Of a stretch of DNA of 64,000 bases, positions 47,147 to 64,000 are shown in pieces (the first letter of the stretch is position 1; each line of letters opens with the position of its first letter). Origin of the DNA: Ilumatobacteraceae bacterium (GTDB lineage: Bacteria; Actinomycetota; Acidimicrobiia; Acidimicrobiales; Ilumatobacteraceae); the NCBI GenBank assembly GCA_035557475.1, contig DATMDV010000370.1, positions 2,336-66,335 on the forward strand. The letters are read 5' to 3'. The notes beneath the pieces were generated by a model, which saw nothing but the letters and a program-made list of their open reading frames with translations, had not been told where the DNA came from and ran no database searches. Made by a program: the position numbers and the translations under genes.

Positions 47147-47200
47147 GCGCCGATCGTACCCCTGGCACTACGGCGCGGTCCCAGCGGCGCCTATCGTGGC

Positions 47201-48037: not shown

Positions 48038-48039
48038 GT

Positions 48040-48063
48040 CGCGTCTGATTGAGTCGGCTCACT
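48040..48063. repeat. copy 2 of the 24-nt motif CG(T/C)GTCTGATTGAGTC(A/G)GCTCACT
   Basis: See 16848-16871. This copy fills the 21-nt gap between convergent stops and includes the TGA of the GT4 gene. Confidence 0.6.
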
Positions 48064-50244: not shown

Positions 50245-50909
50245 TCGCGCCGGGCGGGGAGCTGGGTCATGGTTGCGTGACCTGCTCCCGAGATCCCGCT
50301 GCGCCGCACGACCACCGGGACCGTCCTGGCGAGGATCCGTGCGTCGAGGGCGAGCGAGCGGTGGTCGACGTACCACGCATCGAGCTCGAGCCGGGCGTCC
50401 CACCCGATCGCGTTGCGGCCGTTGATCTGTGCCCAGCCGGTGATGCCGGGGCGGACGGCCAGCCGCCGGCGCTGACGATCGGTGTACCGCTCGACGTAGC
50501 GGACCGGCAGCGGTCGTGGCCCCACGACGGCCATGTCGCCGCGGACGACGTTGACGAGTGAAGGGAGCTCGTCGATGCTCGTCGACCGCAGGAACCGACC
50601 GAGCGGCGTGATGCGGGCGCCGTCGTGGTCGGGGGCCGTCTCTCCCGCACGTAGCGGGCGCATCGTGCGCAGCTTGAGCAGCTCGAAGGGCTCACCATCG
50701 CGACCCGCGCGGGCGTGCCGGAACAGGACCGGACGGCCCATCTTGACCCTGATCGCGAGCGCCGCCGCAGCGAGCACCGGTGCGGCAAACGCGAGGGCGG
50801 CCAAGGCGATCACCACGTCGAGTAGGCGCCGAACCGCGCGGCTCGTTCGTCCCTCGATTCGCCCGTTCGTGCGCCCGGCCCCCGACGACTGAACCTTCCA
50901 GCCCGCCAC
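50241..50909 (-). CDS. small polyprenyl-phosphate sugar-1-phosphate transferase (PglC/WbaP-C type, bacterial sugar transferase family)
   Basis: One N-terminal hairpin helix (VVIALAALAFAAPVLAAAALAI), then GRPVLFRHARAGRDGEPFELLKLRTM, DELPSLVNVVRGDMAVVGPRP and RPGITGWAQINGRN. Confidence 0.85.
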   Translation of the reverse strand: MAGWKVQSSGAGRTNGRIEGRTSRAVRRLLDVVIALAALAFAAPVLAAAALAIRVKMGRPVLFRHARAGRDGEPFELLKLRTMRPLRAGETAPDHDGARITPLGRFLRSTSIDELPSLVNVVRGDMAVVGPRPLPVRYVERYTDRQRRRLAVRPGITGWAQINGRNAIGWDARLELDAWYVDHRSLALDARILARTVPVVVRRSGISGAGHATMTQLPARRE

Positions 50910-50957
50910 GACCGCTCAGTCTTCCGCATCACCGCGCGTTGTGCCAATGTTCCGGTC

Positions 50958-51842
50958 GTGGGCGGACTCCGATCTCGGGTCGCGCGGCGGGCTCGGCGGC
51001 TCCCCGTGCTTCGGCGTTATCCCGTGACGTACATCTCGTCGTGGCTCGACGGGTACCGGCTGCGCGGCGACTTCGACCAGGTTCGCGCGTTCGTGATGTT
51101 CGTCGGCCAACCGCGCACCGGGCACAGCATCGTCGGCGCCCTGCTCGACGCCCATCCGAACACGTTGATCGCCCACGAGCTCGATGCGCTCAAGTACGTC
51201 ACTGCCGGCTACGACCGACGACGCCTGTACGCCCTGCTCGTGCGTGCACAGCAGGAGCGGATCGCCGCCGGCCACATCTCCGCGACCGGCTACCAGTATC
51301 TCGTCGACGGTCAGTGGCAGGGACGGTACGAGCAGCTGCAGGTGATCGGCGACAAGAAGGGCGGTCAGTCGACCGCCCGTCTCGGCGCGGACATCGGCTT
51401 GCTCGACCGTCTGCGCGCGACCGTTGGCGTCGACGTGCACGTCGTCCAGGTCGTGCGCAACCCGTACGACGTCATCGCCACGATGCAGCGCCGGGCGCCG
51501 AATCGCCGGCTGCCCGACGTCGTCGACTTGTTCTTCGACCTCGCCGTCACGGTCGACGAGGTCCGCCGCCGGGTCCCCCCCGAACGGTTCCACGAGCTCC
51601 ACCACGACGCGCTGATCACCGACCCGACGGCCACGCTGAGCAAGCTGTGCACGTTCTTGAGCCTCCCCGCACCCGCCGACTACCTCGCCGCGTGCAGCGC
51701 CATCATCTTCGACACACCGCGTCGCACCCGCGGCGACGTGGCATGGACGCCGGAGCTGATCGAGTGCGTTCGCGCACGCTTGGCCGAGCACCCGTCGCTC
51801 GAGCACTACGGATACGAAGCCACGTCGGCGGAGGCGTCGTGA
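50958..51842 (+). CDS. sulfotransferase, family C, tandem copy 1
   Basis: P-loop FVMFVGQPRTGHSIVGALLDAHPN; VVQVVRNPYDVIATM. Collinear with the next gene along its whole length. Confidence 0.7.
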   Translation: MGGLRSRVARRARRLPVLRRYPVTYISSWLDGYRLRGDFDQVRAFVMFVGQPRTGHSIVGALLDAHPNTLIAHELDALKYVTAGYDRRRLYALLVRAQQERIAAGHISATGYQYLVDGQWQGRYEQLQVIGDKKGGQSTARLGADIGLLDRLRATVGVDVHVVQVVRNPYDVIATMQRRAPNRRLPDVVDLFFDLAVTVDEVRRRVPPERFHELHHDALITDPTATLSKLCTFLSLPAPADYLAACSAIIFDTPRRTRGDVAWTPELIECVRARLAEHPSLEHYGYEATSAEAS

Positions 51843-52714
51843 AGACCAAGCAGGCCCACCGACGCCGCCAGGTGGCGCGCCTCGTCAACGGGGTCCGCGT
51901 GCTCCCCGGCTTCCGCAACTACCCGATGCTCTACGTCAGCTCGGCGGTGCGGGGTCGCCAACTGCGCGCCGACTTCGCCAGCGTGCGCACGTTCTTGCTG
52001 TTCGTCGGGCATCCGCGCAGCGGCCACAGCCTGGTCGGTTCGCTGCTCGACGCTCATCCCGACGCGGTGGTGTCGCACGAGCTCGACGCGCTCAAGTACG
52101 TCGCCGCCGGCTATCGCCGATCGCAGCTGTTCACGCTCGTGCTCGAACACGCCAAGGCCAACGCCGCGGCTGGCCGGAAATCGTGGGGCTACTCGTACGC
52201 CGTGCCCTCCCAATGGCAGGGACGGTACGAGCGGCTCGAAGTGGTGGGCGACAAGCGCGGCCGGCGCACGACCGCCCGCCTTGCCGAACGACCCGAGTTG
52301 CTCGACCGGCTGGCGGCCACGGTGCAGATGCCGGTATCGGTCGTGCAGGTCGTCCGCGACCCGATCGACAACATCTCGACGATGTGGCGACGAGGGCAAC
52401 TCACGCTCGAGTACCAGATCGACGAGTACTTCTCGCTGTGCGACACGGTCGACAAGATCACCGCCGGGATGGATCCGGCGCGCTTTCACCGTGTGCGGCT
52501 CGAGGAGCTCATCGCCCATCCGCACGACCAGCTCACCGACCTGTGTCGGTTCCTCGAGATGCGAGTCGTGCCGGGATACGTCGATGCGTGCGCGTCGATC
52601 GTGTTCGAGGCGCCGCGCCGTACCCGCGACGATGCGCCGTGGACAGCGGAGCTGGTCGACGACGTGCGTCGTCGAGCCGGGCGCCACGAATGGCTGGCGC
52701 CGTACGACGCATGA
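51839..52714 (+). CDS. sulfotransferase, family C, tandem copy 2
   Basis: GTGA overlap. FLLFVGHPRSGHSLVGSLLDAHPD; VVQVVRDPIDNISTM. The track ORF was trimmed from 50780. Confidence 0.7.
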   Translation: MKTKQAHRRRQVARLVNGVRVLPGFRNYPMLYVSSAVRGRQLRADFASVRTFLLFVGHPRSGHSLVGSLLDAHPDAVVSHELDALKYVAAGYRRSQLFTLVLEHAKANAAAGRKSWGYSYAVPSQWQGRYERLEVVGDKRGRRTTARLAERPELLDRLAATVQMPVSVVQVVRDPIDNISTMWRRGQLTLEYQIDEYFSLCDTVDKITAGMDPARFHRVRLEELIAHPHDQLTDLCRFLEMRVVPGYVDACASIVFEAPRRTRDDAPWTAELVDDVRRRAGRHEWLAPYDA

Positions 52715-52727
52715 CGGGCGGCGGACG

Positions 52728-53789
52728 GTGAGGCTGAAGTCGCGGGTCAAACGGCTGCTGCGCTCCGCCGGGTTGCGCCGGCGGCGGTCGCCGTGGGTGG
52801 TGCACGAGGATCAGCCGGCTGGCCCGGACCCGCTCGACTCGTGGGCGTTGTACGCGATCGTGGTGACTTGGATGGAGGCCGACGTGATCGCGGCCACCGT
52901 CCGCAACGCCCTGACGCAGGGATGCGAGAGGGTGATCCTGGTCGACAACGACAGCCCCGACGACACCGTGGCGGCGGCCATCGCCGCTGGGGCCGAGCTG
53001 GGGACGTCGTTCTCGACCCCTCAGCTCGACGAGATGCTGAAGATCCGCCTGCTCAACGAGACGGTCGCACGGGTGTCGGACGAATCACCCCACGACCACA
53101 TCTGGTGGCTGTGGCTCGACGCCGACGAGTTCGTCCACGGTCCCGGCGGTTCGACCGTCGCCGAGATGCTGACGACCTTGGACCGTCGCTTCCGCATCGT
53201 CGGCACCCGGTACTTCAACCACTTCCCCGATCGCCGCCCCGAGCACCTCGTGGGGCTCCACCCGCTCGACTTCCAGGCGGCGTGCGAGGAACGATCGGGC
53301 GACCTCTGCGACCTCGGCCATCGCAAGCACAGCCTCCAACGCTGGGATCGCCACGGACCGCCGATCACGTCGGGGCTCGGGTTCCACGCTGCCCGCGCCG
53401 ACGTCACGCTCGTCGAGCCGACGCTCGCCACGTTCACGCACCACTTCCCCTACCGGTTGGAGGCGGCCACGCGGCAGCGGTTCGATGCGCTCTGTGGCCG
53501 TGACGGCAACGGACGGTCACGCGTCGATCCCTACGACCGCCAGGTGCGGCGCAACGCCCGCACCGACTCCGACATGTCGAAGCGTTACCGGACGCTCGAG
53601 CACGTCTACGCGCGCGAATGGGCGAGGATCGAGAACCTGCGCCGCGCCGGGAACACGCTCGGGGTCGTGCTGCGCCCGTGGTGCGACGCGGTCGACCCGG
53701 CGGATGCGCAGTTCGCGAGGTGGTACTCGCCGACCGAGCTCGAGGCCGCGATCGCCGAGTGGGCGCTCACGGGCGGCGCGCCCCCGTGA
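52728..53789 (+). CDS. GT-A fold glycosyltransferase (GT2-like)
   Basis: YAIVVTWMEADVI, VILVDNDSPDDT, WLWLDADEF (DxD). The GTG 52728 start is uncertain. Confidence 0.65.
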   Translation: MRLKSRVKRLLRSAGLRRRRSPWVVHEDQPAGPDPLDSWALYAIVVTWMEADVIAATVRNALTQGCERVILVDNDSPDDTVAAAIAAGAELGTSFSTPQLDEMLKIRLLNETVARVSDESPHDHIWWLWLDADEFVHGPGGSTVAEMLTTLDRRFRIVGTRYFNHFPDRRPEHLVGLHPLDFQAACEERSGDLCDLGHRKHSLQRWDRHGPPITSGLGFHAARADVTLVEPTLATFTHHFPYRLEAATRQRFDALCGRDGNGRSRVDPYDRQVRRNARTDSDMSKRYRTLEHVYAREWARIENLRRAGNTLGVVLRPWCDAVDPADAQFARWYSPTELEAAIAEWALTGGAPP

Positions 53790-54625
53790 CGCCGCCGCCT
53801 TCCACACCGGCCGGGTTGCTGCCGAACTTCGTCGTGATCGGAGCGATGCGCTCCGGGTCGACGTCGTTGTACAAGTACCTGCAGGCCCACCCCGACGTCT
53901 TCATGCCGCGCAAGGAGATCCACTTCTTCGACGTCAAGTGGGACCGCGGTGTGGCGTGGTACCACACTCGCTTCGAGGGATACGCCGGGCAGACGGCGAT
54001 CGGGGAGGCGACGCCGACCTATCTCGCCGATCCCGTCGCGCTCGACCGCATGGCGGGCACGATTCCAGACACGCGGCTGGTAGCCGTGTTGCGTGATCCG
54101 GTCGACCGCGCCTACTCGCACTACTGGATGGAACACGCCCGCCAACGTGATCCGCGGACGTTCGAGGCTGCCATTGCCGACGAGCTCGCAAGACGGCCGG
54201 GTGCACCCCCATCCGACTACCTCGACCGCGGTCGCTACGCGCGGCAGCTCGAGCAGGTGTGCGAGCGGTTCCCACGGCACCACCTGCACGTCGTGCTCCT
54301 CGACGACCTCCGCGACCGGCCCCACGAGACCTACGCCGCGGCGTGCCGGTTCCTCGGGATCGACGACGGGTTCGTGCCGCCTCGGATCGGCGAGCGGGTC
54401 AACCGGTTCGTGGCGTTCCGATCGATGCGGGTGCGGAACATGCGCCGCTCACTTCCGTCGACGTTGCGGATCGCGCGGATCGTCGGCCGGCTCAACGCTC
54501 GCGAGGGCGCCTACTCGCCGATGGCAGCCGAAACGCGGGCGACATTGCACCAGCATTTCGGCGCCGACAACGAGGCGCTGGCCGAGTGGCTCGGACGCGA
54601 TCTGTCGATGTGGGGTGCCCGATGA
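53786..54625 (+). CDS. sulfotransferase, family B, paralog 2 (heparan-sulfate sulfotransferase-like)
   Basis: GTGA overlap. FVVIGAMRSGSTSLYKYLQAHPDVFMPRKEIHFFD, VAVLRDPVDRAYSHYWM. Confidence 0.8.
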   Translation: MTPPPSTPAGLLPNFVVIGAMRSGSTSLYKYLQAHPDVFMPRKEIHFFDVKWDRGVAWYHTRFEGYAGQTAIGEATPTYLADPVALDRMAGTIPDTRLVAVLRDPVDRAYSHYWMEHARQRDPRTFEAAIADELARRPGAPPSDYLDRGRYARQLEQVCERFPRHHLHVVLLDDLRDRPHETYAAACRFLGIDDGFVPPRIGERVNRFVAFRSMRVRNMRRSLPSTLRIARIVGRLNAREGAYSPMAAETRATLHQHFGADNEALAEWLGRDLSMWGAR

Positions 54626-54683
54626 CCGTGACTGAACGCAATCCCGACCGATCCTCGAACGGCGTCACGCGGATAGCGTTGTC

Positions 54684-55592
54684 ATGGTGACACGGGTCGC
54701 CGGCGCCACCGCTCAACTCGAGGACGAGGCGATCACGATCATCCGCGAGGTCGCCGCCGAGTGCGAACGGCCGGTGCTGCTGTTCTCCGGCGGCAAGGAC
54801 TCGGTCGTGATGCTGCACCTGGCCCGCCGGGCGTTCTGGCCGGCGCGGATCCCGTTCCCGGTGATGCACGTCGACACCGGCCACAACTTCGACGAGGTCA
54901 TCGCGTTTCGTGATCGCACGGTCGATCTGTTCGACGTGAAGTTGATCGTCGCCTCGGTGCAGGACTCGATCGATCGCGGGCGCGTGCACGAGGACACCGG
55001 CCCACGTGCATCGCGCAACCCGTTGCAGACGGTGACGTTGTTGGACGCGATCACCGAGCATCGTTTCGACGCCGTGTTCGGCGGAGCGCGCCGCGACGAG
55101 GAACGGGCGCGAGCCAAGGAGCGGGTGGTGTCTCACCGCGACGAGTTCGGTCAGTGGGATCCCAAGAACCAGCGCCCCGAGCTGTGGGGGATCTACAACA
55201 CCCGACGCAATCGGGGCGAGCACGTCCGGGTCTTCCCGCTGTCGAACTGGACCGAGCTCGACGTGTGGCGGTTCATCGCCGAGCGCGACGTCGAGCTGCC
55301 GTCGCTCTACTTCGCCCATCACCGTCAGGTGTTCCGGCGCGACGGGATGCTGATGGCCACCAACCGGCATGTGCCGCGCCTCGACGGCGAGGAGCCGTTC
55401 GAGGCGCTGGTGCGGTTCCGCACGATCGGCGACGCCACCTGCACGGCCGCCGTCGAGTCGGCCGCGTTCACGGTCGACGACATTGTCGCCGAGACGGCGG
55501 TGGCCAGGGTCACCGAGCGCGGTGCGACCCGCGCCGACGACCGCATCTCGGAGGCCGGCATGGAAGACCGCAAGCGCCAGGGGTACTTCTGA
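54684..55592 (+). CDS. cysD: sulfate adenylyltransferase subunit 2
   Basis: PP-loop LLFSGGKDSVVMLHLA; HVDTGHNF; the C-terminal RKRQGYF is typical of CysD. Confidence 0.9.
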   Translation: MVTRVAGATAQLEDEAITIIREVAAECERPVLLFSGGKDSVVMLHLARRAFWPARIPFPVMHVDTGHNFDEVIAFRDRTVDLFDVKLIVASVQDSIDRGRVHEDTGPRASRNPLQTVTLLDAITEHRFDAVFGGARRDEERARAKERVVSHRDEFGQWDPKNQRPELWGIYNTRRNRGEHVRVFPLSNWTELDVWRFIAERDVELPSLYFAHHRQVFRRDGMLMATNRHVPRLDGEEPFEALVRFRTIGDATCTAAVESAAFTVDDIVAETAVARVTERGATRADDRISEAGMEDRKRQGYF

Positions 55593-56878
55593 TGCAACCC
55601 GACACGACCGCCGGCCGCCAGCGGGCGCCGTTGCGCTTCGCCACGGTCGGCAGCGTCGACGACGGCAAGTCGACGCTCATCGGACGCCTGTTGCTCGACT
55701 CGAAGTCGATCTTCGAGGACCAGCTCGAACACATCGAGGCGGTCAGCAAACGCCGCGGCAACGACTACGTCGACCTGGCCCTGCTGACCGACGGCTTGCG
55801 GGCCGAGCGCGAGCAAGGCATCACCATCGACGTCGCGTACCGGTACTTCTCGACGCCCGTCCGCAGCTTCATCATCGCCGACTGCCCCGGCCATGTGCAG
55901 TACACCCGCAACGCGATCACCGGCGCATCGACCGCCGACCTGGCGCTCGTGCTCGTCGACGCCCGCCACGGAATCGTCGAACAGACGCGACGCCACAGCC
56001 TGTTGGTCTCGCTGCTCGGCGTGCCGCACCTCGTCATCTGCGTCAACAAGATGGACCTCGTCGGTCACGATCGAGACCAGTTCGACGCGATCCGCCAGGA
56101 GTTCACCGAGTTCGCCGCCCGCCTCGACCTGCGCGACGTCACGTTCATCCCGATCTCCGCCCTCGACGGCGACAACGTCGTCGACCGCTCGGCGAACATG
56201 ACGTGGTACGAGGGCCCGACCCTGCTGCACCACCTCGAGACGGTGTACACGGCGAGCGACGAGAACCTCATCGACGTGCGCTTCCCGGTGCAGTACGTCA
56301 TCCGCCCGCAACGCGCCGATCACCACGACTACCGCGGCTACGCCGGCACGGTCGCCGCTGGCACGCTCCGACCAGGCGACGAGGTGCTCGTGCTCCCGTC
56401 CGGCTTGACGTCGCGGATCGCGCGCATCGACACCGCCGACGGCCCGGTCGACGAGGCCCGCCCGTCGATGGCCGTCACGGTGCTCCTGGCCGACGACCTC
56501 GACGTCTCACGCGGCGACATGATCTGCCGCCCGAACAACCATCCGACGCCGTCCCAGGATCTCGACGCCACGATCGCGTGGATGGACTCCGAAGCCCCGC
56601 TGGCCCTGCGGCGCGTGTACGCGCTGAAGCACACGACCCGCACGGTGCGAGCAATGATCACCGACGTCCACTACCGGCTCGACGTCCACTCCCTACATCG
56701 CGACACCGAGGCGACGGAGCTGAAGCTCAACGAGATCGGTCGGGTCACGCTGCGGGCGACGGCGCCGCTGTTCGCCGACGACTATCGCCGCAGCCGTGTG
56801 ACCGGAAGCTTCGTCCTCATCGACGAGGCGACCAACCAGACGGTCGCCGCCGGAATGCTCCGCACCGCCACCGCCTGA
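55592..56878 (+). CDS. cysN: sulfate adenylyltransferase subunit 1 (GTPase); no fused APS-kinase domain
   Basis: The ATG overlaps the cysD TGA by 1 nt. G1 GSVDDGKSTLIGRLL, G3 DCPGH, G4 NKMDL. At 428 aa it ends after the beta-barrel domains. Confidence 0.9.
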   Translation: MQPDTTAGRQRAPLRFATVGSVDDGKSTLIGRLLLDSKSIFEDQLEHIEAVSKRRGNDYVDLALLTDGLRAEREQGITIDVAYRYFSTPVRSFIIADCPGHVQYTRNAITGASTADLALVLVDARHGIVEQTRRHSLLVSLLGVPHLVICVNKMDLVGHDRDQFDAIRQEFTEFAARLDLRDVTFIPISALDGDNVVDRSANMTWYEGPTLLHHLETVYTASDENLIDVRFPVQYVIRPQRADHHDYRGYAGTVAAGTLRPGDEVLVLPSGLTSRIARIDTADGPVDEARPSMAVTVLLADDLDVSRGDMICRPNNHPTPSQDLDATIAWMDSEAPLALRRVYALKHTTRTVRAMITDVHYRLDVHSLHRDTEATELKLNEIGRVTLRATAPLFADDYRRSRVTGSFVLIDEATNQTVAAGMLRTATA

Positions 56879-56891
56879 CGGCTCTGACGAC

Positions 56892-59800
56892 TCACGGCCT
56901 CCATTCGGCGAGGTGCTCGGCCAGGTCGGCGAGCGCGGCCGCGACGGCAGGGTCGCGGACCAGGATCGCGAGCTCGGCGACGTACCGCGTCGGCGAGCCA
57001 CGCTCGCGGGCGGTCGAGCGGTGGCGGAAGACGTCGATGTAGGCCGCCTTGATCGCGTCGAGTGTCGGACCGTCGCTCAGCGACGCGTCGATCAGCGCTC
57101 GGGTGAGCGCCAGCTCCGGATGGGCGACGCGCCCCCAGAAGTCGGTGGCGGGACCCACGAAGTCAGGCGCGTCGATGGCCGCCAGGATCGCCGCCCGTCG
57201 GCTCGGTTGGAGGAGGCCGCCGATCCCGTCGAGTTGCAGCGCGCACAGTGCCCCGTAGGGCTTGCCGTCGAGCCGCCACGCTTCGGCGTAGGCCCGGGCG
57301 GCCGTGCGCAGTGCGGTCGTGCGTTCGCGACCTCGGGTGGACGCGGCGACGGCCTTCCAGAACCCGGCGTTGATGGCGACGCGCTCGGCGGTGCGGCCCA
57401 ACGCCAGCAACGTGGCGATCCGTGCCTTCGCCGTGTCGCGCAGCGTGGTCGCGGTCACAGGCGACTTGGGCTCGAGCGCGATGAGCGCGGCCAGCTCGTC
57501 CTTGTCGGGGGGCTGGGGCGATTCGAGGGCGGCGGCGAGGCGTACCTCGAGGTTGGCGAGCTGCTCGACGGCCTTCAGCGACACGTGGGCATCGGCGCAC
57601 ATGAGCGCCTTGCGGTACGCGCGGACGGAGTCGGCAAGCGCGCCGCACTCGCCGAAGCCTCCGCCGAGGGCGGCCCACACGTCTCCCCGTACGTCCCACG
57701 GGGGGATGGCGAGCCCTTCGAGCGCCCGCACTTCGGTGGCGATGCGGCTCTGATCGGCCCCTGGGTCCCCAGCCTGTACCGCCAGCGCGACGAGTGCCCG
57801 CACGAGCTCCTCGGCCGACACCGGGTGGCTCGCCGACGAGGAACGGGCGCCGGCCGCGGCCAACCGGAACGCGGGGTCTCCGTAGCACTGGTAGGCCGCC
57901 CACGTGTTCGACGCGCCCCCGTCGACCTGGTGGGCCGCGACGCGAGCGGCGCGCACCGCGATTCCGAACGCCTCACCGCCGAGCATCCGGTCGTAGAACA
58001 CCTTGGCGAACTCGGCGGCCGCTCGATCGTCGACCGACCATCCTGCCGCCACCACGGCCCGCACGCCCATGGCCATCAGCTTGCGCGAGAGGCTGGCCGC
58101 GAGCTGGGGGAGGCGGCCACGCTGGACGGCGAGGATCGCCTTGTCCGCAGTCTCGGGTGATCCGTCCCCCTCGCGGGACTCGGTCAGCACACTGCCGAGG
58201 TGGCAGCAGTTCAAGAACACGAGGCTCGGTGGACGACGCATCTGACCGATCTCCACTGCCGTGAGGTACTGGTTACGTCCGATGGCCACTCCGCCCCACG
58301 GTTTGCCGTCGCGCCCTTCGGGGTCGAACCACCCATGTCCCGCGATGTGCAGGATCTGGTAGTCGTCGGCGAGCAACATCCCGATCACGGCACCCGCGGA
58401 GCCAGCCTCTTCTTGCGCGTCGCCTTCGAAGATGACGGGGACCACGCGGACGTCGGCGGCGGCGAGTTGCTCCGCGACCGCCTTCGCCTCGCTCTGCGCT
58501 CCTTCCAATCGCGGGAACAGGGCACCGGCTGGTGGATCGCCGATCACCAGCGCGCGTGGGTGCACCGTCGACACGTCTCCCACGGGTCGGTCGATCAGTT
58601 TGAGCTGACGCACGAAGCCCATCCGCTTCACCAGCGGCTCGGGCCCGCCGAGCGCCGAGCGGTCGGCGAGCGCCTCCCATGGGATGTCGGCGGTCTGTTC
58701 GTCGACGACGAGCACGAGGTTCTCGACTGAACCCAGCTCGCGCTTCAGATCGTTCGGCAGGAGGAGCTCGAACAACGCCACGTTCACCGTGCCGTCGACG
58801 CGAGCCGATCCGACGGCGTCACGAACCATCCGCCCGACGAGACCGTTGTCGACCACGTGCGGGACGAGGTCGGCCCTGGCGCGGGCGCCGAGCGACGTGA
58901 ACATCAGCTCGACCAGGCCATCGCCGACCTTCTCGTCCGGCCCGCTGACGATGAGGCGGCGCCACATGCCTGCGCCGTACTCGGCCGTCGGCGCCGACGG
59001 CCGGCCGCCCTCGCCCACCACGAGGCGGTCGGATGGTCGCACCTCGCCGCCGGCCTGCAACGCCACCGGGAGGTAGCGCTCGATGTCGCGGACGATCCGC
59101 GCCGCGTCCTCCGCGCGCTGTTCGTACAGCTCGACGATCTCCAGCTCGTCGATGCGCACCGGGCGCTCGGTTTGCGACGAGGCCAGTTCGCGGTTGGCGA
59201 GAAGCACACCTTCGACGATGGCGCCGACGACGGTGGGGACCTGCAGCCCGTCCGGGCCGTAGCTGCCGACGAGCACCGAGGAGAGCCCGACGGTCACCGG
59301 TGTCGGCTCGTCGGCGTCGAGCAATGGTGGAACCGACGCCAGCGCGTGTTCGACGGCTGCGTTGTGCAGCGCTCGGGCGAGCGCGGTCGGCGTGAGGTCC
59401 CCCATCTCGCCGAGCCCGATCACGGCAACCCCGGCGAACGCCCCGAGCCGTTCCTCGCCGGCGGGCACGACCCGCAGCACGTCGTTCGGCGTCGCCGGAT
59501 AGCGGCCGAGCACCTGTCGAGCGGTCAGCCTGCCACCCAACAACCAGTCGGCCCACTCCTCGGCACCGCCGAACGGTGTGCCTGCGTAGTGACCGAGCAC
59601 CACGAGGTGGCTGGCGTGCTCGAGACTGGCGTGGCGCACCGAGACCTTCAGGGTGGGCAACGGGGCGTCGACGAGCCGCAGCGTGCCGAGCCAGCTGCTC
59701 GTGGCTTCGTCGACGTACTGCCGAGCGATCGTCGCGCGCTGTTGTCGACTCGGCGCGCGTCCGCGGACGGCACGGGCGAGCGGGATCGGGTCGATGAGCG

Positions 59801-62600
59801 GTGGCAGTTCGAGCTCGTCGCCCGCAACCCAGTCGAGAGTCGTCGGAGCGCGTCGAGCGACGACTGGTGCCTCGGTCGGCAGGATGTCGGTCGCACCCTT
59901 GCGCAGCAGTTCGGACACCGCGGCGACGACGTCTCGGTCGGTCGTGAGGCCTCCGTGATCGGCGGTCGAGTACCAGACCTTCGTGATCGCCGGTCGACCA
60001 TTCGCGTCGCGGGCGATGCCGGCATCGTGGGTGACCCGACCGTCACCGGCTCGGGTCTGCTGGAAGCGAAATCGTCCTGGCCCTTCGATCCGCAGCTTGG
60101 CAGGAGTGTCATGCCCACTGCCGGCGACGTAGAGCATCCGCGCCGCGTCGAACCCGTCGGTGGCCAGCGCGACATGGATCCGTCGCGCCTCGTCGAGCAA
60201 CGGCTTGCGCACCTGTTTCGCCTCCCAGCTGGCCGGGTCGTACAGCCGGGCATGCTCGCTCTCCCCTTCCGGTAGGTCGGGTGACGGAAGGAGTTGGTAG
60301 GCGCCGGGAAAGCTGGCGACGATCTGTTGCACCTCATCGCGGTTGTTGCGCAGGTCGAGCCGGGCGAGCCAGCGCACCATCTTGTCCTCGGCGGTCAGCG
60401 CGGTGGCGATCGACAGCGACCCGAGCGACGGGGTTCCGAGCATCACCAGCCGACCGCCCTTGGCGACGTCGCCACGGTCGAAGAGTCGATCCCACGACTT
60501 GCGGTGCCGGGCCCGCAGCATGCGGCACACGAGGCCGCCCATCGAGTGGGCGACGAGGTGGGCCGGCTGACCCCACTCGTCGACCTTTTTGGCGAGGAGG
60601 TCGGCGGCGGCGTCGATCCCGAGCCGCCAGTCGAACGCCACGGGCACCACGTCCCACTCACTGTCGAGTCCCATGATGAGGGGGAGATAGACGCGATAGA
60701 GGCCGTCAGCGCTGATGTCGTCGCCGGCCGGATGACCCAGACGGCGGAACTCACCGTTGACGAGACGCAGGGGGTTGATCCAAATGCGGTCGCTGTCGCC
60801 ACCCCGCTCGTGCGCCGACAGCAGCGAGCCCATGATGCCGTGCAGCACGAACACGCGACCGGCCTTGGACGCTCCCGCGCCCCGCGCGAACCGGTCGAGA
60901 GCAACCGGGCCGATCTGCGCCTCGAGGGCCCGGCGGTCGCGCTCGGACAGGGCCTGGATGGCGGTCCGAACACCGTCGAGATCGCCGGCGGCGAGGCGCT
61001 CGTCGACGCCGGCGAGCGGATCGGTCTCCTCGGTGCCGGTGAGCAACGCCGGCCCGGCCGCGCGGGCCAGCGTCGTGCCCGCCGCAGCCGGCGTCGCCCG
61101 CAGCGCGGGATCGGCGGCACCGAACCAGCGCTCGAAGGCGGCGATCACATCGGCCGCTGTCCAGAACGACGAATGGTCGACGCCGCGGGCCGCCGGCAGC
61201 ACGACCCGCTCGGTGATCGGAAAGCCGGTCGCGCCATTCCACTGGTAGGTGCTGCTCGTCGGAACGATGAGGTCGTTCGGTTCGTAGTCGAAGACGTGGT
61301 CGAACAGCGCATCGCGGGCGATGCGCGCCAGACCACTCCCACGCGGCGGCTCGTAATCGGAGGCGATCGCGCGGTAGCGGGCGGTCACCGGCCGGGGCTT
61401 GTTGAGTTGGGCGAGGAAGCCGTCGGCATCGTGTTCCGCCGCTCGCATCGCCATCAGTCCGTCGAGACCCTTCATCGCCGAGACCGCCAACTGCTTGACC
61501 ACGCCGACGACGCCAGTGATCGTGTCGAGCACCGGACTGGCCGGGTTGTCGGGCACGAGGTCGACGAGGTTCGTGAGCGAATCGACCAGACCGCCGAGGT
61601 GGTCGGGGTCGGCGAGCGGCGTGCCGTGGCTCGGTGTCGCCACGAACACCACCTGGCGGACGCGAAGACGTCCGGAGCCGATGCCGACGTCGTCGGCGCG
61701 CTCGGTCAGCATGCGGGCGACGAGACCGCCCCGCGAATGCGCGAGCACATCGACTTCGAGTCCGGCGTCGGCGGGAAGCATCTCAGCCAGCCGCCGGCAG
61801 TTCTCGGCCGGGTCGATCGACAGGGTGGGATGGTCGAACGCAAACACGCGGCCGTCGTATTGCTGGTGGAGGCGGGCGACGACATCGTCGGGGAGCCGGC
61901 CGAACCCCGAGTGCGTGAGGCAGTTGACGCCATGGAGCACCAGCAGCGCCGGGCCCTTGGCCAACTCGAGGAGATCCGGTGATTCGCCGGCGGGCAAGCG
62001 GTAGTCCTTGACCGTGAACGTACGGAGCCGGTGCGGTCGGGCCTGCTCCTCCCACCGGCGGACGAAGAAGTCACCCACCTCGCCTGCCACCTTGTCGACG
62101 AGCTCGAACGTGAGCACGTGGAGCACCTTCTTGGCGAGCCGGCCGACGAGCCCTCGCGACGCCACGACATCGTCGCCGTCGTCGGCATCGGTGACGAGGT
62201 TGATCCTGAACGTCGAGCCCGCTGGCGCACCGCGACGCCGTGAGGCGCCGGGCGCTGACGCCTCCGGAAACACCCACCGAAACGCACCGGCGTCCTCGAC
62301 CAGGAGCACCTGGCCCTGACCGGGCGGCGGTGGCGGCGCGGTGAGCTCGACCGACGCCGCGACATCCGGTCCGATCGGCATCGGCCCACCACCTCGCCGG
62401 GGCGCTCGAGACAAGATCGTGGGGTGGGCCTCCACGGTGGCACCGGCGACCTCTTCGAGCCCGGCGGCGGCCAGCGCGGCGCTCACGGAACCGGGCGGTG
62501 CCGATCGGTCCGGAAGTGCGACCCGCACGTCTCCGCGTGTGGCCGCGAGTCGCAGCCCTCCCATCTCGATCGGTGCGCCGCCCGACTCCAACTCGGTCAT
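56892..62600 (-). CDS. 1902-aa multidomain protein: two lipase-like alpha/beta hydrolase domains + CHAT (caspase-like) protease domain + C-terminal helical-repeat region
   Basis: - Nucleophile elbows VLAHSRGG (Ser ~289) and LVAHSMGG (Ser ~686).
- CHAT dyad context: YQILHIAGHGWF (His ~1422) and PSLVFLNCCHLGS (Cys ~1465/1466).
- The last ~380 aa are Ala/Leu-rich, TPR-like helices.
- No signal peptide.
- GGAGG lies 6 nt before the ATG. Confidence 0.75.
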   Translation of the reverse strand: MTELESGGAPIEMGGLRLAATRGDVRVALPDRSAPPGSVSAALAAAGLEEVAGATVEAHPTILSRAPRRGGGPMPIGPDVAASVELTAPPPPPGQGQVLLVEDAGAFRWVFPEASAPGASRRRGAPAGSTFRINLVTDADDGDDVVASRGLVGRLAKKVLHVLTFELVDKVAGEVGDFFVRRWEEQARPHRLRTFTVKDYRLPAGESPDLLELAKGPALLVLHGVNCLTHSGFGRLPDDVVARLHQQYDGRVFAFDHPTLSIDPAENCRRLAEMLPADAGLEVDVLAHSRGGLVARMLTERADDVGIGSGRLRVRQVVFVATPSHGTPLADPDHLGGLVDSLTNLVDLVPDNPASPVLDTITGVVGVVKQLAVSAMKGLDGLMAMRAAEHDADGFLAQLNKPRPVTARYRAIASDYEPPRGSGLARIARDALFDHVFDYEPNDLIVPTSSTYQWNGATGFPITERVVLPAARGVDHSSFWTAADVIAAFERWFGAADPALRATPAAAGTTLARAAGPALLTGTEETDPLAGVDERLAAGDLDGVRTAIQALSERDRRALEAQIGPVALDRFARGAGASKAGRVFVLHGIMGSLLSAHERGGDSDRIWINPLRLVNGEFRRLGHPAGDDISADGLYRVYLPLIMGLDSEWDVVPVAFDWRLGIDAAADLLAKKVDEWGQPAHLVAHSMGGLVCRMLRARHRKSWDRLFDRGDVAKGGRLVMLGTPSLGSLSIATALTAEDKMVRWLARLDLRNNRDEVQQIVASFPGAYQLLPSPDLPEGESEHARLYDPASWEAKQVRKPLLDEARRIHVALATDGFDAARMLYVAGSGHDTPAKLRIEGPGRFRFQQTRAGDGRVTHDAGIARDANGRPAITKVWYSTADHGGLTTDRDVVAAVSELLRKGATDILPTEAPVVARRAPTTLDWVAGDELELPPLIDPIPLARAVRGRAPSRQQRATIARQYVDEATSSWLGTLRLVDAPLPTLKVSVRHASLEHASHLVVLGHYAGTPFGGAEEWADWLLGGRLTARQVLGRYPATPNDVLRVVPAGEERLGAFAGVAVIGLGEMGDLTPTALARALHNAAVEHALASVPPLLDADEPTPVTVGLSSVLVGSYGPDGLQVPTVVGAIVEGVLLANRELASSQTERPVRIDELEIVELYEQRAEDAARIVRDIERYLPVALQAGGEVRPSDRLVVGEGGRPSAPTAEYGAGMWRRLIVSGPDEKVGDGLVELMFTSLGARARADLVPHVVDNGLVGRMVRDAVGSARVDGTVNVALFELLLPNDLKRELGSVENLVLVVDEQTADIPWEALADRSALGGPEPLVKRMGFVRQLKLIDRPVGDVSTVHPRALVIGDPPAGALFPRLEGAQSEAKAVAEQLAAADVRVVPVIFEGDAQEEAGSAGAVIGMLLADDYQILHIAGHGWFDPEGRDGKPWGGVAIGRNQYLTAVEIGQMRRPPSLVFLNCCHLGSVLTESREGDGSPETADKAILAVQRGRLPQLAASLSRKLMAMGVRAVVAAGWSVDDRAAAEFAKVFYDRMLGGEAFGIAVRAARVAAHQVDGGASNTWAAYQCYGDPAFRLAAAGARSSSASHPVSAEELVRALVALAVQAGDPGADQSRIATEVRALEGLAIPPWDVRGDVWAALGGGFGECGALADSVRAYRKALMCADAHVSLKAVEQLANLEVRLAAALESPQPPDKDELAALIALEPKSPVTATTLRDTAKARIATLLALGRTAERVAINAGFWKAVAASTRGRERTTALRTAARAYAEAWRLDGKPYGALCALQLDGIGGLLQPSRRAAILAAIDAPDFVGPATDFWGRVAHPELALTRALIDASLSDGPTLDAIKAAYIDVFRHRSTARERGSPTRYVAELAILVRDPAVAAALADLAEHLAEWRP

Positions 62601-62658
62601 CCCTGCCTCCCCATGCCCTGCCGCCCCCTTGCACGTCGGGACTCAGCAGTGGCGCACC

Positions 62659-63273
62659 CTAGTTGCGCACGTCAGACGCCAAATCCGGATTCGACGGCGG
62701 TGGCACCGGGCGGTCGCCGACGCGGGCGCCGGTGATGACGGAAGCGTCCGGGAACAGCGTCAGCGAGAGGAGCCGCCGGCGGCGCTCGCCACCGGGCTCG
62801 TGGGCGCGAAGCGGTTCGAGGAGCTCGGTCCAGCGCGTCGCCGCCTCGGCGAGCTCGTCGTCGCTCAGCCACAGCGGGATCTGCTCATAGAGGACGCCGT
62901 CGGGTCCGCGGCCGGTTTCGATCGAGCGGAGATAGCGCTCGAAGCCGGTGATGAGCGAGCCGACGAAGGTGGCGAAGTAGCGCAGGTGATCTTCGGCGGT
63001 GGCGGATGCGACGTCGTCCGGTCCGAGCTCGACGGCCGACTCGACCACGGCGTAGGTCCGTTCGACCCCTCCCCGCACGACGCGCTCGTCGGTCACGTGC
63101 ACGAGGCCGGCGTCGACGAGCCGGGCCACGTGGCGATACAGCGAGGCCTGCGGGACGTCACTCAGAACGTCCTTGAGCTGCTGGGTCGTGAGTTGGCGGC
63201 CGACGAGCGCCTGCACGATGCGGAGACGCACGGGGTGCAAGAGCGTGTCGGCCACGTGCCGTTCGTCAGCCAT
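62659..63273 (-). CDS. ArsR-type winged-helix transcriptional regulator with C-terminal extension
   Basis: LLHPVRLRIVQALVGRQLTTQQLKDVLSDVPQASLYRHVARLVDAGLV (HTH plus wing). It lies 58 nt upstream of, and co-directional with, the giant gene. Confidence 0.75.
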   Translation of the reverse strand: MADERHVADTLLHPVRLRIVQALVGRQLTTQQLKDVLSDVPQASLYRHVARLVDAGLVHVTDERVVRGGVERTYAVVESAVELGPDDVASATAEDHLRYFATFVGSLITGFERYLRSIETGRGPDGVLYEQIPLWLSDDELAEAATRWTELLEPLRAHEPGGERRRRLLSLTLFPDASVITGARVGDRPVPPPSNPDLASDVRN

Positions 63274-63290
63274 GCCCGATGTTTCGGTTG

Positions 63291-63322
63291 ACTCTCATCA
63301 TTGGGAATGATATCACTCTCAT
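63291..63322. promoter_or_regulatory. candidate operator in the divergent ArsR / hydrolase intergenic region
   Basis: The only clearly AT-richer gap in this part of the window. Inverted repeat ATCATT-GGG-AATGAT (63297-63311), flanked by direct repeats ACTCTCAT (63291-63298 and 63315-63322). Confidence 0.4.
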
Positions 63323-63369
63323 AGTTCTCATCTTCGAGAACAAACCCTTGGCGGAACGATCGGACAGCA

Positions 63370-64000
63370 GTGACGGAGCACCACATCGACATCTGGTCCG
63401 ACCAGACCCGCCTGGCGGGTGCGGTCACGCTCCCGACGTCCGCCGGTTCCCATCCGGCCGCGTTGCTGCTCAGCGGCTCGGGACCGTTGGACCGAGACTC
63501 GAACACGAAGCGGATGCGTCTCGACGTCTCGAAGTCCATTGCGGCCGGTCTGCTGTCGCACGGCATCGCATCACTGCGGTACGACAAGCGTGGCGTCGGG
63601 GCCTCGGGTGGCGAGTACCTGCCCGCCGGGTTCGACGACGAGACCGCCGACGCTCGAGCGGCGCTGGATGCACTCCGCACCCACGCTCGCATCGACGCCG
63701 ATCGGGTGATCGTCATCGGCCACTCGGCAGGGGCCACGGTGGCGATGCGACTCGTGCGCACGTCGACGCCGCCCGCCGGCTACGTGTTCTTGGCCGCCGC
63801 GGCCATGACCGGCGAGCAGGTGATGGAGTGGCAGACGCATCGGATCGCGGCGACGCTGCCGTCGCCGCGGGGCAAGCGGGCACGCCGCTTCGAGCGCCGC
63901 CAAGCGCGACACCGTGCCCTGCTCTCGGGATCCACCACCGACATCGTTCGCCTCGCGTGGGTGCGCTGGAACGCACGCTGGTTCAGGGAGTACATGACCT
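63370..64000 (+). CDS. alpha/beta hydrolase (partial; runs off the right edge)
   Basis: The GTG 63370 frame is open to the window end, so it is not in the ORF track. VTEHHIDIWSDQTRLAGAVTLP..., LLLSGSGPLDRDSN, and the nucleophile elbow VIVIGHSAGA. Confidence 0.7.
   Translation, partial: MTEHHIDIWSDQTRLAGAVTLPTSAGSHPAALLLSGSGPLDRDSNTKRMRLDVSKSIAAGLLSHGIASLRYDKRGVGASGGEYLPAGFDDETADARAALDALRTHARIDADRVIVIGHSAGATVAMRLVRTSTPPAGYVFLAAAAMTGEQVMEWQTHRIAATLPSPRGKRARRFERRQARHRALLSGSTTDIVRLAWVRWNARWFREYMT

Follow-up and report, generated by a model that had tools for sequence, protein, structure and literature searches.

The 64,000-nucleotide stretch of Ilumatobacteraceae DNA analysed here (the window) carries a large gene that is an intact member of a big, uncharacterised and horizontally scattered family of cytoplasmic multi-enzyme proteins. 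A Peptidase_M17_N-like domain, a CHAT protease and a TPR-S region form the conserved core of ~900 aa, which occurs alone or with one hydrolase only, while the N-terminal effector modules fused to it are variable; in the window protein these are two lipase/phospholipase-type alpha/beta hydrolases (Table 1). Our leading reading, held tentatively and given a little less than an even chance, is that the large protein is a biological-conflict sensor-effector of the abortive-infection or programmed-cell-death type, in which a protease would arm membrane-attacking phospholipases.

Table 1. Features of the large gene and its upstream region, in window positions.
Feature	Position	Strand	Basis or content
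Whole ORF	56892..62600	-	1902 aa + stop; DUF7379/LCAT-like/M17_N-like/CHAT/TPR-S multi-domain protein
N-terminal beta-rich domain, aa 1-166	62103..62600	-	AlphaFold model shows strands
Alpha/beta hydrolase 1 (DUF7379, lipase-like), ~aa 216-495	61116..61955	-	Pfam PF24096 E 1.5e-52
Alpha/beta hydrolase 2 (LCAT / lysosomal phospholipase A2-like), ~aa 580-900	59901..60863	-	Pfam LCAT, profile, Foldseek
Disordered inter-module linker, aa 901-982	59655..59900	-	pLDDT <50, model residues 1-50
Peptidase_M17_N-like (leucine-aminopeptidase N-domain, macro-like fold), ~aa 983-1195	59016..59654	-	Fold, profile, and Pfam in homologues
CHAT caspase-like protease, aa 1275-1576	57873..58778	-	Pfam CHAT E 5.8e-34 (aa 1275-1575)
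All-helical TPR / TPR-S-like repeat region, aa 1596-1902	56895..57815	-	Model all-helical, pLDDT ~90-97
ArsR-family (HTH_20) regulator gene, 204 aa	62659..63273	-	HTH_20 53.9 bits
ArsR-to-large-gene spacer, 58 nt	62601..62658	-	Holds Shine-Dalgarno sequence
Divergent intergenic region, AT-richer	63274..63369	.	Between ArsR gene and alpha/beta-hydrolase (S15/S33-like) ORF

The large gene is the sole long ORF in its interval with coding-type GC3 (0.86), and a Shine-Dalgarno sequence (GGGGAGG) lies ~6 nt ahead of its ATG, which upholds the description in an earlier note of one 1902-aa frame with a good ribosome-binding site. The product is identical to database entry P0001, 'CHAT domain-containing protein [Ilumatobacteraceae bacterium]'. 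It is without a signal peptide and, as had been claimed, no TM segment is seen in it, with a Kyte-Doolittle maximum of 1.42 over any 19 residues. Two structure models of the protein reached pLDDT values of 82.7 and 83.1.

The N-terminal ~200 aa, previously left unassigned, form in the model a domain rich in beta strands, from which two loops stand out as disordered (pLDDT <50 at residues 65-79 and 138-154). The two lipase-like hydrolases that had been proposed around Ser ~289 and Ser ~686 were both confirmed by motifs and by profile and fold matches to lipases and phospholipases (LPLA2, LCAT, Tle4). The first matches Pfam DUF7379 at aa 219-389; its oxyanion motif, His223-Gly224, and its triad of Ser289 (nt 61734-61736, in DVLAHSRGG), Asp443 and His476 are invariant in 33 homologues, and its family profile matches bacterial lipases at ~1e-7, as does its fold. 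The second matches Pfam LCAT at aa 643-772 (22.3 bits; cutoff 21) and has a triad of Ser686 (nt 60543-60545, in LVAHSMGG), Asp853 (in GDGRV) and His882, the latter two invariant in homologues and the serine kept in at least 90%. Its profile matches Group XV PLA2 (PLA2G15; 4x90, E 7.7e-10) and LCAT (1e-8), and Foldseek returned LPLA2 (4x97, E 2.7e-9, TMt 0.61) and Tle4 (4r1d, 2.2e-8). Hydrolase 2 shares with LCAT/PLA2G15 and Tle4 the fold (TMt ~0.6), the Ser-Asp-His order and the GDG Asp motif; however, LCAT and PLA2G15 are eukaryotic enzymes, secreted or lysosomal and stand-alone, and Tle4 is a T6SS phospholipase effector, a secreted toxin with an immunity partner, whereas hydrolase 2 sits within a giant cytoplasmic protein that also contains a protease.

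The middle ~400 aa, which had also been unassigned, contain a LAP-N/macro-like domain; this identity is new here and is backed by both sequence and fold. Foldseek matched the domain to LAP N-domains (7y1s, E 9.4e-5; 1gyt) and to TTHA0132 (2dx6, TMt 0.73), and its profile matched residues 19-99 of LAP 3jru (E 0.0011). Pfam Peptidase_M17_N was matched by 10 of 22 homologues (best E 7.7e-6), with P0125 at 25.0 bits against a cutoff of 23.4, and the window protein's own score was sub-threshold (11.9 bits). Motifs conserved across the family are G1003-H-Y, G1012-x-E1014, D1018 and G1062-L-G1064. The domain is present in 1184 clusters at 50% identity. It stands N-terminal in proteins of ~900-1000 aa that have no more than the core, and deeper in the chain of those that begin with one or two hydrolases.

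For the CHAT protease, the His/Cys pair noticed earlier maps onto the known dyad with a shift of one residue in the cysteine. His1422 (HIAGHG, nt 58335-58337) and Cys1466 (FLNCCHLG, nt 58203-58205) correspond in alignment to the HG/NAC dyad motifs of SAVED-CHAT, a protease of solved structure (8tl0_A); in the model they lie where strands 517-527 and 561-567 finish on their C-terminal side (model numbering). All of 100 homologues have H1422, G1423 and C1466, and H1422 and C1466 are invariant in the 33-sequence alignment too; Cys1465, first named as the catalytic residue, is ruled out, the invariant Cys of its motif being Cys1466. The fold of the core model matches Csx29 (8eex_B, E 5.9e-6, 508 aligned columns), SAVED-CHAT (8tl0) and separase. 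Behind the protease, the proposed TPR-like helices agree with the all-helical model and with TPR-S and consensus-TPR matches; Pfam TPR-S scores 23.3 bits in the window protein (aa 1686-1787), under the cutoff of 27.6, and 32-46 bits in related proteins with the same core.

Alignments and models together show Arg-Gly/small motifs that are kept inside otherwise unconserved loops of pLDDT <50. The N-terminal loops hold RRGG (aa 68-71, nt 62388-62399), with R69 conserved, and SRGL (aa 148-151, nt 62148-62159), with G150 conserved; the inter-module linker holds ARR with Arg916 (nt 59850-59858), which is at least 90% conserved amid a variable stretch. R69, R149 and R916 are candidate protease processing sites. 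Not all CHAT proteases studied to date cleave after Arg. One caspase-like protease from bacterial defence does so strictly, requiring Arg at P1 with small residues next to it (10.1101/2024.10.24.620036). Conservation of these motifs could be over-read, given that R and G are abundant in this high-GC proteome (R 8.8%, G 9.6%) and that aligners stack identical residues in variable loops; low-GC homologues (e.g. P0107) retain them. The inter-module linker is also the split point where relatives carry two genes: in one close relative the gene is divided there into ORFs of 1004 and 915 aa, and stand-alone cores of ~900 aa begin at the same position.

A search for the same architecture elsewhere found relatives in at least 581 of ~185,000 species and in more than 10 phyla, with a patchy spread and some copies on plasmids; none were found in viral contigs. 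Across 85 relatives' loci the neighbourhood is enriched in Peptidase_C14, TIR_2, TPR-S or nSTAND genes, which adjoin the large gene at 35 and are lacking at 50. Peptidase_C14 genes occur at 19 loci, ~14 of them ending 17-131 nt upstream of the large gene on the same strand, TPR-S/MAP3K_TRAF_bd proteins at 14, TIR_2 at 14 and nSTAND1 at 5. TIR joins C14 at only 5 of the 19 C14-bearing loci; at P0025, the large gene lies between TIR_2 genes, and a Peptidase_C14 gene follows at a greater distance downstream. The copy on an Azotobacter plasmid adjoins type I R-M, Fic, recombinase and IS genes. These neighbours are consistent with a role in conflict systems.

The window copy itself is a solo gene between the ArsR gene and the sulfate-activation genes (CysN/CysD/sulfotransferase), with no C14, TIR, TPR-S or STAND homologue in the 64 kb, and its nearest Acidimicrobiia relatives are likewise solo, with housekeeping neighbours such as sulfate-activation, tRNA synthetase and prephenate dehydratase genes. 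The locus is syntenic among close relatives rather than hypervariable, and is not a defence island; some close relatives carry a split or frameshifted copy. The single-polypeptide sensor-effector proposed earlier is partly supported, by catalytic centres that are intact and conserved (33-100 homologues) and by the conflict-type neighbours at 35/85 loci, but not by the surroundings of the window copy.

The ArsR-like gene precedes the large gene on the same strand at a distance of exactly 58 nt, as first described. The spacer showed neither a consensus promoter nor an intrinsic terminator, so co-transcription of the two genes is possible. On the other side of the ArsR gene, the divergent intergenic region holds an imperfect palindrome, TGGGAATGATAT/ATATCACTCTCA, at 63302-63321, which is a candidate operator. 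The regulator may be co-transcribed with the window copy or regulate it, but the suggestion that the large gene is kept under ArsR-type repression does not extend to the family: no ArsR homologue was found at the 85 wider loci, only a few close Ilumatobacteraceae relatives share the synteny, and in a 69%-identical relative the upstream place of ArsR is taken by an astacin gene. The ArsR gene is a lineage-specific upstream neighbour, outside the family design.

A regulated housekeeping or stress enzyme complex, with CHAT and the two esterases/lipases serving normal physiology under ArsR-type transcriptional control in this lineage, would suit the setting of the window copy and its close relatives, which stand among housekeeping genes without defence neighbours, as well as the terminator-free ArsR synteny in several Ilumatobacteraceae and an intact gene with host-like GC3. 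Such a complex might act in envelope/lipid remodelling, protein quality control or development, as does HetF, a cyanobacterial CHAT protein acting in development. We consider this unlikely, however, since the family is patchy across many phyla and plasmids, the ArsR link is missing at 85/85 wider loci, repeated TIR, C14, TPR-S and STAND adjacency would not be expected of a housekeeping enzyme, and close relatives tolerate split or frameshifted copies.

The statement that this domain order is not a described system appears to hold for the exact architecture, for which no PADLOC model matched the large protein and no paper was found in the literature. It does not hold for the theme of caspase and alpha/beta-hydrolase gene neighbours, as Kaur, Burroughs, Iyer and Aravind (2020; PMC7159879) had already predicted such pairs in vWA-MoxR/VMAP ternary and GAP1-N1 NTP-dependent conflict systems, where an alpha/beta-hydrolase gene goes with the caspase domain in every case. 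The terms 'CHAT' and 'TPR-S' are absent from the text of that paper, and the architecture is not described there. Like those systems, the present family shows an obligatory partnership of caspase-fold protease and alpha/beta hydrolase, is found in bacteria with many conflict genes of the TIR, STAND and TPR kinds, and includes relatives encoded as two adjacent genes, hydrolase then core; unlike them, two hydrolases and the protease are fused here in one chain with LAP-N/macro-like and TPR-S regions, and no vWA, MoxR or GTPase components lie near the large gene.

In SAVED-CHAT/PCaspase of type III-B CRISPR-CBASS (Steens et al., 10.1101/2023.06.23.546230; PDB 8tl0), a proteolytic cascade runs from SAVED-CHAT to a second caspase, which it activates. 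There too CHAT is C-terminal to a putative sensor domain, its dyad motifs align and its fold matches the large protein, and the stand-alone C14 gene close to the CHAT gene at 19/85 relatives' loci suggests a two-protease cascade. The large protein nevertheless lacks a SAVED domain and has neither cyclase nor CRISPR genes beside it (Pfam scan), has a macro-like domain in the sensor position with phospholipase modules and a TPR-S tail added, and in the window is without a C14 partner. The best structural match is Craspase (type III-E Cas7-11/gRAMP with TPR-CHAT Csx29; PDB 8eex), which shares the combination of TPR and CHAT from which CHAT takes its name. Csx29, however, carries its TPR ahead of CHAT and is switched on as a protease by the RNA-guided Cas7-11 complex, while the large protein has a C-terminal TPR-S and lipase modules; among eleven window ORFs scanned against Pfam, none matched a Cas protein family. 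Type IV Thoeris (Rousset et al., 10.1101/2024.10.24.620036) is a two-gene system of small proteins, a TIR and an Arg-specific caspase-like protease; its strict P1-Arg cleavage with small flanks matches the conserved [ST]-R-G linker motifs, and TIR_2 and ~290-aa C14 genes flank some family members, whereas the window has neither TIR nor C14, and the macro-like domain is a putative ligand binder.

An alternative is a conflict protein whose hydrolases would act with the caspase-like protease on proteins, peptides or small-molecule esters rather than on membrane lipids, with killing or signalling by proteolysis. Kaur et al. class hydrolase and caspase as a peptidase pairing (PMC7159879), other architectures, too, repeatedly join DUF7379 to a protease of the C14 or CHAT type (P0050, P0088, P0118), and type IV Thoeris kills through promiscuous proteolysis (10.1101/2024.10.24.620036). 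This reading appears improbable to us, as by profile and fold alike both hydrolases match true lipases or phospholipases best (LPLA2, LCAT, Tle4, family I lipases) rather than peptidases, and homologues retain the GDG-Asp and GxSxG motifs of the LCAT type. Very improbable is a toxin against bacteria or eukaryotes that would be exported as a phospholipase effector of the Tle kind and, once delivered, processed by its own CHAT domain: the fold resembles Tle4 and large multi-domain toxins often bear self-processing cysteine proteases, but the protein is without signal peptide or TM segment, secretion-system, immunity-protein, Rhs, PAAR and VgrG genes are absent among the neighbours examined, and the recurrent partners are cytoplasmic immunity-type domains (TIR, STAND, C14).

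For the conflict sensor-effector that we prefer, we infer the following order of events. At rest, the hydrolases would be kept inactive within the single chain. A trigger, possibly a small signal derived from nucleotides or a protein of phage or other foreign origin that the TPR would bind, would be sensed by the TPR-S and/or the macro-like domain; the latter is as good a sensor candidate as the repeats, and we know of no ligand-sensing role for LAP-N-like domains. The trigger would activate the CHAT protease, probably with the adjacent stand-alone C14 caspase also involved in ~20% of relatives, and cleavage after the conserved Arg residues (R69, R149, R916) in the disordered linkers would free or unmask the phospholipase modules. 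These would then break down membrane lipids, and the cell would be killed or arrested. Taken as a whole, the family looks like a self-contained cell-suicide or immunity device.

The reading frame of the 1902-aa protein is the sole long ORF of its region with coding-type codon-position G+C (GC3 0.86, GC2 0.51), in a window of ∼70% G+C. Its ATG lies ∼6 nt past a GGGGAGG, the frame runs without interruption, and the product is identical to a public database entry, P0001, labelled 'CHAT domain-containing protein [Ilumatobacteraceae bacterium]'. A pseudogene or annotation artefact was ruled out on the basis of the open frame, this GC3 value and the intact state of all catalytic residues. Pfam returned DUF7379, LCAT and CHAT followed by a sub-threshold TPR-S, which is the domain order that had been proposed in the earlier note, and the motifs quoted there were found in place. 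The claimed absence of a TM segment likewise held, since no 19-residue window of the protein exceeded 1.42 on the Kyte-Doolittle scale. An NCBIfam scan of the protein gave nothing meaningful and a single-sequence search of the PDB gave a spurious haemoglobin match only; the single-sequence query being uninformative, PDB comparisons were performed with family profiles. Conservation was assessed on a full-length alignment of 33 homologues (24-49% identity to the protein) and a C-terminal alignment of aa 900-1902 with 99 homologues (100 sequences), and AlphaFold models of aa 1-900 (pLDDT 83.1) and aa 900-1902 (pLDDT 82.7) were built from 38-sequence alignments.

The CHAT domain (PF12770; aa 1275-1575) was detected by Pfam at 118.3 bits against a cutoff of 24 (E 5.8e-34). 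His1422-Gly1423 and Cys1466 were present without exception among the 100 homologues. Of the catalytic pair originally proposed, His1422 stands, but the conserved cysteine in the alignments of both 33 and 100 sequences is Cys1466 and not its neighbour Cys1465, which was below 90% in the former, ∼90% in the latter and never invariant. In the profile of the CHAT region, 'ilhiaaHG' and 'lvFlncC' aligned with ILHFIGHG and LVVLNAC of the SAVED-CHAT protein 8tl0_A (E 1.6e-6), a solved and active protease, and the His/Cys motifs therefore map onto the CHAT dyad, the point on which the earlier proposal had been staked in advance. Foldseek matched the C-terminal model to Csx29 of Craspase (8eex_B, E 5.9e-6), SAVED-CHAT and separase, with H1422 and C1466 at or inside the C-terminal ends of strands 517-527 and 561-567 of the aa 900-1902 model. 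By sequence and model alike, the protein carries a caspase-like CHAT domain with a conserved dyad and is a predicted protease.

Two alpha/beta hydrolase domains occupy the N-terminal half, behind a beta-rich domain in the AlphaFold model (aa 1-166). The first, DUF7379 (PF24096; aa 219-389), scored 178.8 bits in Pfam against a cutoff of 33 (E 1.5e-52), and its His223-Gly224, HSRGG elbow with Ser289, Asp443 and His476 were invariant or at least 90% conserved among the 33 homologues. The second matched LCAT (PF02450; aa 643-772) marginally, at 22.3 bits against a cutoff of 21, while the family profile matched PLA2G15 (4x90, E 7.7e-10), LCAT (E 1e-8) and also lipases in the PDB. Here the residues that were invariant or at least 90% conserved comprised Gly588/Gly591-Ser592, the HSMGG elbow with Ser686, Asp853 in GDGRV, and His882. 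These include the triad of GxSxG Ser, GDG Asp and C-terminal His, with Ser686 at least 90% conserved and Asp853 invariant; His882 was invariant among the 33 aligned sequences and kept by at least 90% in the alignment of 38. The aa 1-900 model matched LPLA2 (4x97) by Foldseek with an E of 2.7e-9 and a TMt of 0.61 over ∼405 columns overall.

Part of the middle region that had been described as unassigned can now be given a probable identity. A stretch of ∼190 residues unexpectedly matched the N-terminal domain of leucine aminopeptidase (7y1s, E 9.4e-5; 1gyt) and TTHA0132 (2dx6, TMt 0.73) by Foldseek, and a profile of aa 975-1215 from 22 homologues matched residues 19-99 of the leucine aminopeptidase 3jru (E 0.0011). 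Pfam Peptidase_M17_N was matched in 10 of the 22 homologues (best E 7.7e-6), and in one homologue, P0125, at 25.0 bits it exceeded the gathering cutoff of 23.4; the protein's own segment, at 11.9 bits, fell below that threshold. Because fold matches and sequence evidence agree, the middle region is predicted to contain a LAP-N-like domain. An assignment as a separase-like pseudo-caspase was considered and set aside, since the sequence profiles side with the LAP-N/macro-like fold matches. The LAP-N-like type falls within the macro-like fold class, and LAP-N domains are not known to act as ligand sensors. The tail is all-helical in the model, and consensus TPRs were matched by both fold and profile; TPR-S (PF20308; aa 1686-1787) reached 23.3 bits, below the cutoff of 27.6, and the equivalent region of relatives sharing the core scored 32-46 bits.

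The full architecture was found in 143 database clusters by word-index search, with relatives in at least 581 species-representative genomes. Among them are Acidimicrobiia, a Mycobacterium sp., Chloroflexota, Acidobacteriota, Nitrospirota, Methylomirabilis, Beta-, Gamma- and Deltaproteobacteria, Bacteroidota, Planctomycetota and Verrucomicrobiota; a scan of viral contigs found no relatives. Among cultured bacteria, copies are plasmid-borne in Paracoccus (P. yeei), Azotobacter (A. chroococcum), Rhizobium, Ensifer, Ruegeria (R. pomeroyi) and Burkholderia, and chromosomal in Thauera and Mycobacterium sp. RTGN6. Homologue P0073 comes from Thauera sp. WB-2. The middle region alone, searched exhaustively with phmmer, was recovered in at least 1184 clusters at 50% identity (751 at E <= 1e-10). 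It lies at ∼aa 850-1200 in proteins of ∼1800 aa, at ∼aa 500-850 in proteins of ∼1450 aa with DUF7379 only, at ∼aa 300-600 in proteins of ∼1200 aa (the single one scanned, P0179, with LCAT only), and at the extreme N-terminus of ∼900-1000-aa proteins consisting of the M17_N-like, CHAT and TPR-S domains alone. Because its position shifts with protein length and hydrolase content, these sequences indicate a conserved core of LAP-N-like, CHAT and TPR-S domains to which the hydrolases are added as modules. Further variants carry a metallo-beta-lactamase-fold domain (P0032-P0041, P0048 and P0253; ∼2200 aa), a trypsin-like domain (P0099; 3173 aa), or Peptidase_C14 alongside or replacing CHAT, together with DUF7379 (P0050, P0088 and P0118). 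In two close relatives the ArsR-linked gene is disrupted: on the P0265 contig (JGI 3300041965) it is split at the inter-module linker into ORFs of 1004 and 915 aa, and at locus L088 (1843-7567) the reading frame shifts about six times in the hydrolase half, with an open 917-aa CHAT half. Errors of assembly or a decaying effector half may account for this.

Genomic neighbourhoods were compared across 85 loci of relatives by clustering the flanking ORFs and annotating the clusters by Pfam; the two largest clusters were discarded, as their ORFs lay within the N-terminal part of the big gene itself, either antisense to it or in another frame. At least one of four neighbour types was present in 35 of the 85 loci: Peptidase_C14 in 19, separate TPR-S/MAP3K_TRAF_bd proteins in 14, TIR_2 proteins in 14 (two ORF clusters of 10 and 5 loci, one in common) and nSTAND1 NTPases in 5. 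In ∼14 of its 19 loci the C14 gene lies upstream, shares the strand of the big gene and ends 17-131 nt before it, an arrangement suggestive of a two-protease operon for about one in five family loci. Examples of such stand-alone C14 genes, of ∼290 aa, occur in locus L083 (8966-9760; Thauera sp. 2A1) and, among other loci, in L008, L016, L019, L055 and L069. The surroundings of homologue P0025 (locus L005, 6362-15954) form a dense conflict-type cluster, with the order TIR_2, a 147-aa unknown, the big gene, a second TIR_2 that overlaps its stop by 4 nt, SnoaL_2 and Peptidase_C14, and with a large TPR protein and a BTAD/AAA regulator nearby. A cultured organism, Azotobacter chroococcum HR1 (NZ_CP066312.1; L089, 1-16182), provides a defence or mobile-island setting: its family member, a 5.4-kb CDS at 5462-10849, resides on a 76-kb mobilizable plasmid and adjoins type I R-M subunits, a Fic protein, a recombinase and three IS transposases. 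On Paracoccus yeei pYEE1 (L090, 3170-11860), two same-strand genes that overlap or adjoin come ahead of the CHAT gene, one for a 481-aa hypothetical protein and one for a 'transporter substrate-binding domain' protein of 616 aa; the three possibly form an operon, one not seen in the other loci.

None of the PADLOC-DB v2 families was matched by the 1902-aa protein, and our literature search found no paper on this architecture, including CHAT with a lipase or phospholipase in a conflict or anti-phage context, in agreement with the initial impression that it is not a described system; database labels for the family read only 'CHAT/DUF7379 domain-containing protein'. SAVED-CHAT proteins, accessories of CBASS or type III CRISPR, fuse SAVED to CHAT and have a cyclase or Cas10 nearby, whereas Pfam detected no SAVED in our protein and the neighbours examined were unrelated. 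Type IV Thoeris pairs a short TIR gene with an adjacent caspase-like gene, neither of which was found in the 64-kb window by tblastn. Unlike in the VMAP and vWA-MoxR ternary systems, no vWA or MoxR was present among the scanned neighbours in the window, nor as a cluster among the neighbours in the 85 loci. In predicted conflict systems an alpha/beta-hydrolase gene always accompanies caspase domains (Kaur et al. 2020, PMC7159879); relative to that theme, the family represents a fused, duplicated-hydrolase form with an extra LAP-N-like domain. The proteolytic cascade from SAVED-CHAT to PCaspase (10.1101/2023.06.23.546230) is a precedent for the family's pairs of CHAT and C14 genes. The general logic of caspase-centred conflict proteins with hydrolase partners was anticipated.

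Three arginine positions are conserved in otherwise unalignable, low-pLDDT loops: R69-G70, R149-G150 (usually [ST]-R-G) and R916 (usually x-R-G-A, R-R-A in the window copy). Low-GC homologues, P0107 for example, retain them too. A bacterial caspase-like defence protease has been reported to require Arg at P1 and to prefer small neighbouring residues (10.1101/2024.10.24.620036), and by analogy the three positions are candidate processing sites. A caveat is that this proteome is rich in Arg and Gly, and that alignment programs may line up identical residues within variable loops.

The evidence fits a conflict-system sensor-effector in that a conserved regulatory-protease core is combined with swappable lytic modules, the distribution across phyla is patchy, and TIR, caspase and STAND neighbours recur. 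A trigger would be sensed by the TPR-S and/or macro-like domain, CHAT would then be activated with or without C14, the Arg linkers would be cleaved, and the phospholipases so released would damage the membrane. Our data establish only a parts list and its conservation, and the order of events is one that we infer. We hold this reading tentatively, as nearly but not quite evenly balanced; it is weakened by the copy at hand, which is without defence-island context. Together with two other Acidimicrobiia copies, it is a solo gene amid housekeeping genes, and none of the partner families (C14, TIR_2, TPR-S, nSTAND1) was detectable across the 64-kb window, where the TIR and C14 neighbours of relatives served as tblastn queries.

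The local setting bears on the alternative of an ArsR-controlled function in housekeeping or stress, which we consider unlikely. The big gene converges on CysN, CysD and a sulfotransferase, part of what looks like a sulfated-glycan or metabolite cluster; the scanned neighbours also included one ORF without a Pfam match. Upstream, the ArsR-family gene reported 58 nt away is indeed there (HTH_20, 53.9 bits against a cutoff of 27; HTH_5, 23.6 against 22; NCBIfam PRK06474, 121 bits, equal to its cutoff), followed by a divergent alpha/beta hydrolase. Metagenomic relatives with ArsR proteins of 76-87% identity share this arrangement of hydrolase, ArsR, big gene and CysN-CysD. A big gene of 69% identity has an astacin gene upstream instead, and tblastn found no ArsR homologue in the 85 other loci, the regulator being common only to close Ilumatobacteraceae relatives; on these sequence comparisons the link is one of lineage synteny and not a family trait, and ArsR was ruled out as a family component. 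A consensus promoter and terminator scan of 56.5-63.6 kb returned nothing, including between the ArsR gene and the big gene. An imperfect palindrome, TGGGAATGATAT/ATATCACTCTCA, within the AT-richer divergent intergenic region is plausible as a putative ArsR operator.

Features of the window around the big gene and at its far end
Feature	Coordinates	Strand	Basis or remark
Another very long ORF, 1271 aa	1475-5287	-	coding-type GC3
Sulfated-glycan or metabolite cluster (apparent)	41811-56878		downstream of big gene
Beta-helix protein	41811-43961	-	Pfam
Polysaccharide deacetylase	47138-48037	+	Pfam
ATP-grasp enzyme	49261-50691	-	Pfam
Sulfotransferases	50826-51842, 53618-54625	+	Pfam
CysD	54684-55592	+	Pfam
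CysN (∼55.6-56.9 kb)	in ORF 55154-56878	+	Pfam; no APS-kinase domain detected
Big gene, 1902 aa	56892-62600	-	
ArsR-family gene	62659-63273	-	Pfam
Divergent intergenic region	63274-63369		AT-richer
Imperfect palindrome	63302-63321		putative operator
S15/S33-type alpha/beta hydrolase	63325-63999	+	

That the protein serves in conflict but its hydrolases attack substrates other than lipids is improbable; the Foldseek matches of the aa 1-900 model also include LCAT and many bacterial lipases. We found no paper mentioning DUF7379, a Pfam family without assigned function. An exported Tle-like toxin, as a match of the same model to the T6SS phospholipase Tle4 (4r1d) could suggest, is highly improbable.

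Returning to the conflict sensor-effector, its most elaborate form would be an 'executioner' complete in itself, whose caspase-like protease would license the phospholipases by cuts at the conserved Arg linkers, coupled to a macro-like sensor and a C14 cascade; taken together, we judge these elements a distinctly doubtful combination. It would place a death pathway from protease to membrane destruction within one bacterial polypeptide. The LAP-N/macro-like domain would then be a new type of sensor for a small nucleotide-derived immune signal, e.g. TIR-made ADP-ribose derivatives, paralleling the SAVED, SLOG and Macro sensors of CBASS and Thoeris, and versions with an adjacent C14 gene would form a two-tier caspase cascade.

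Caspase-fold proteases, together with TIR, STAND and TPR modules, form a bridge between bacterial immunity and eukaryotic cell-death machinery, and the bacterial caspase-like systems understood in any detail are few, namely Craspase, SAVED-CHAT/PCaspase and type IV Thoeris. The present family is large (core domain in at least 1184 clusters at 50% identity, relatives in at least 581 species), carries three intact predicted enzyme centres per chain, and had no literature that we could find. Experiments are feasible because cultured bacteria carry plasmid or chromosomal copies. The family offers a testable link between proteolytic activation and membrane-lipid destruction, along with a candidate new sensor domain; if its role is not defence, a conserved giant with two lipases and a protease still calls for a physiological explanation.
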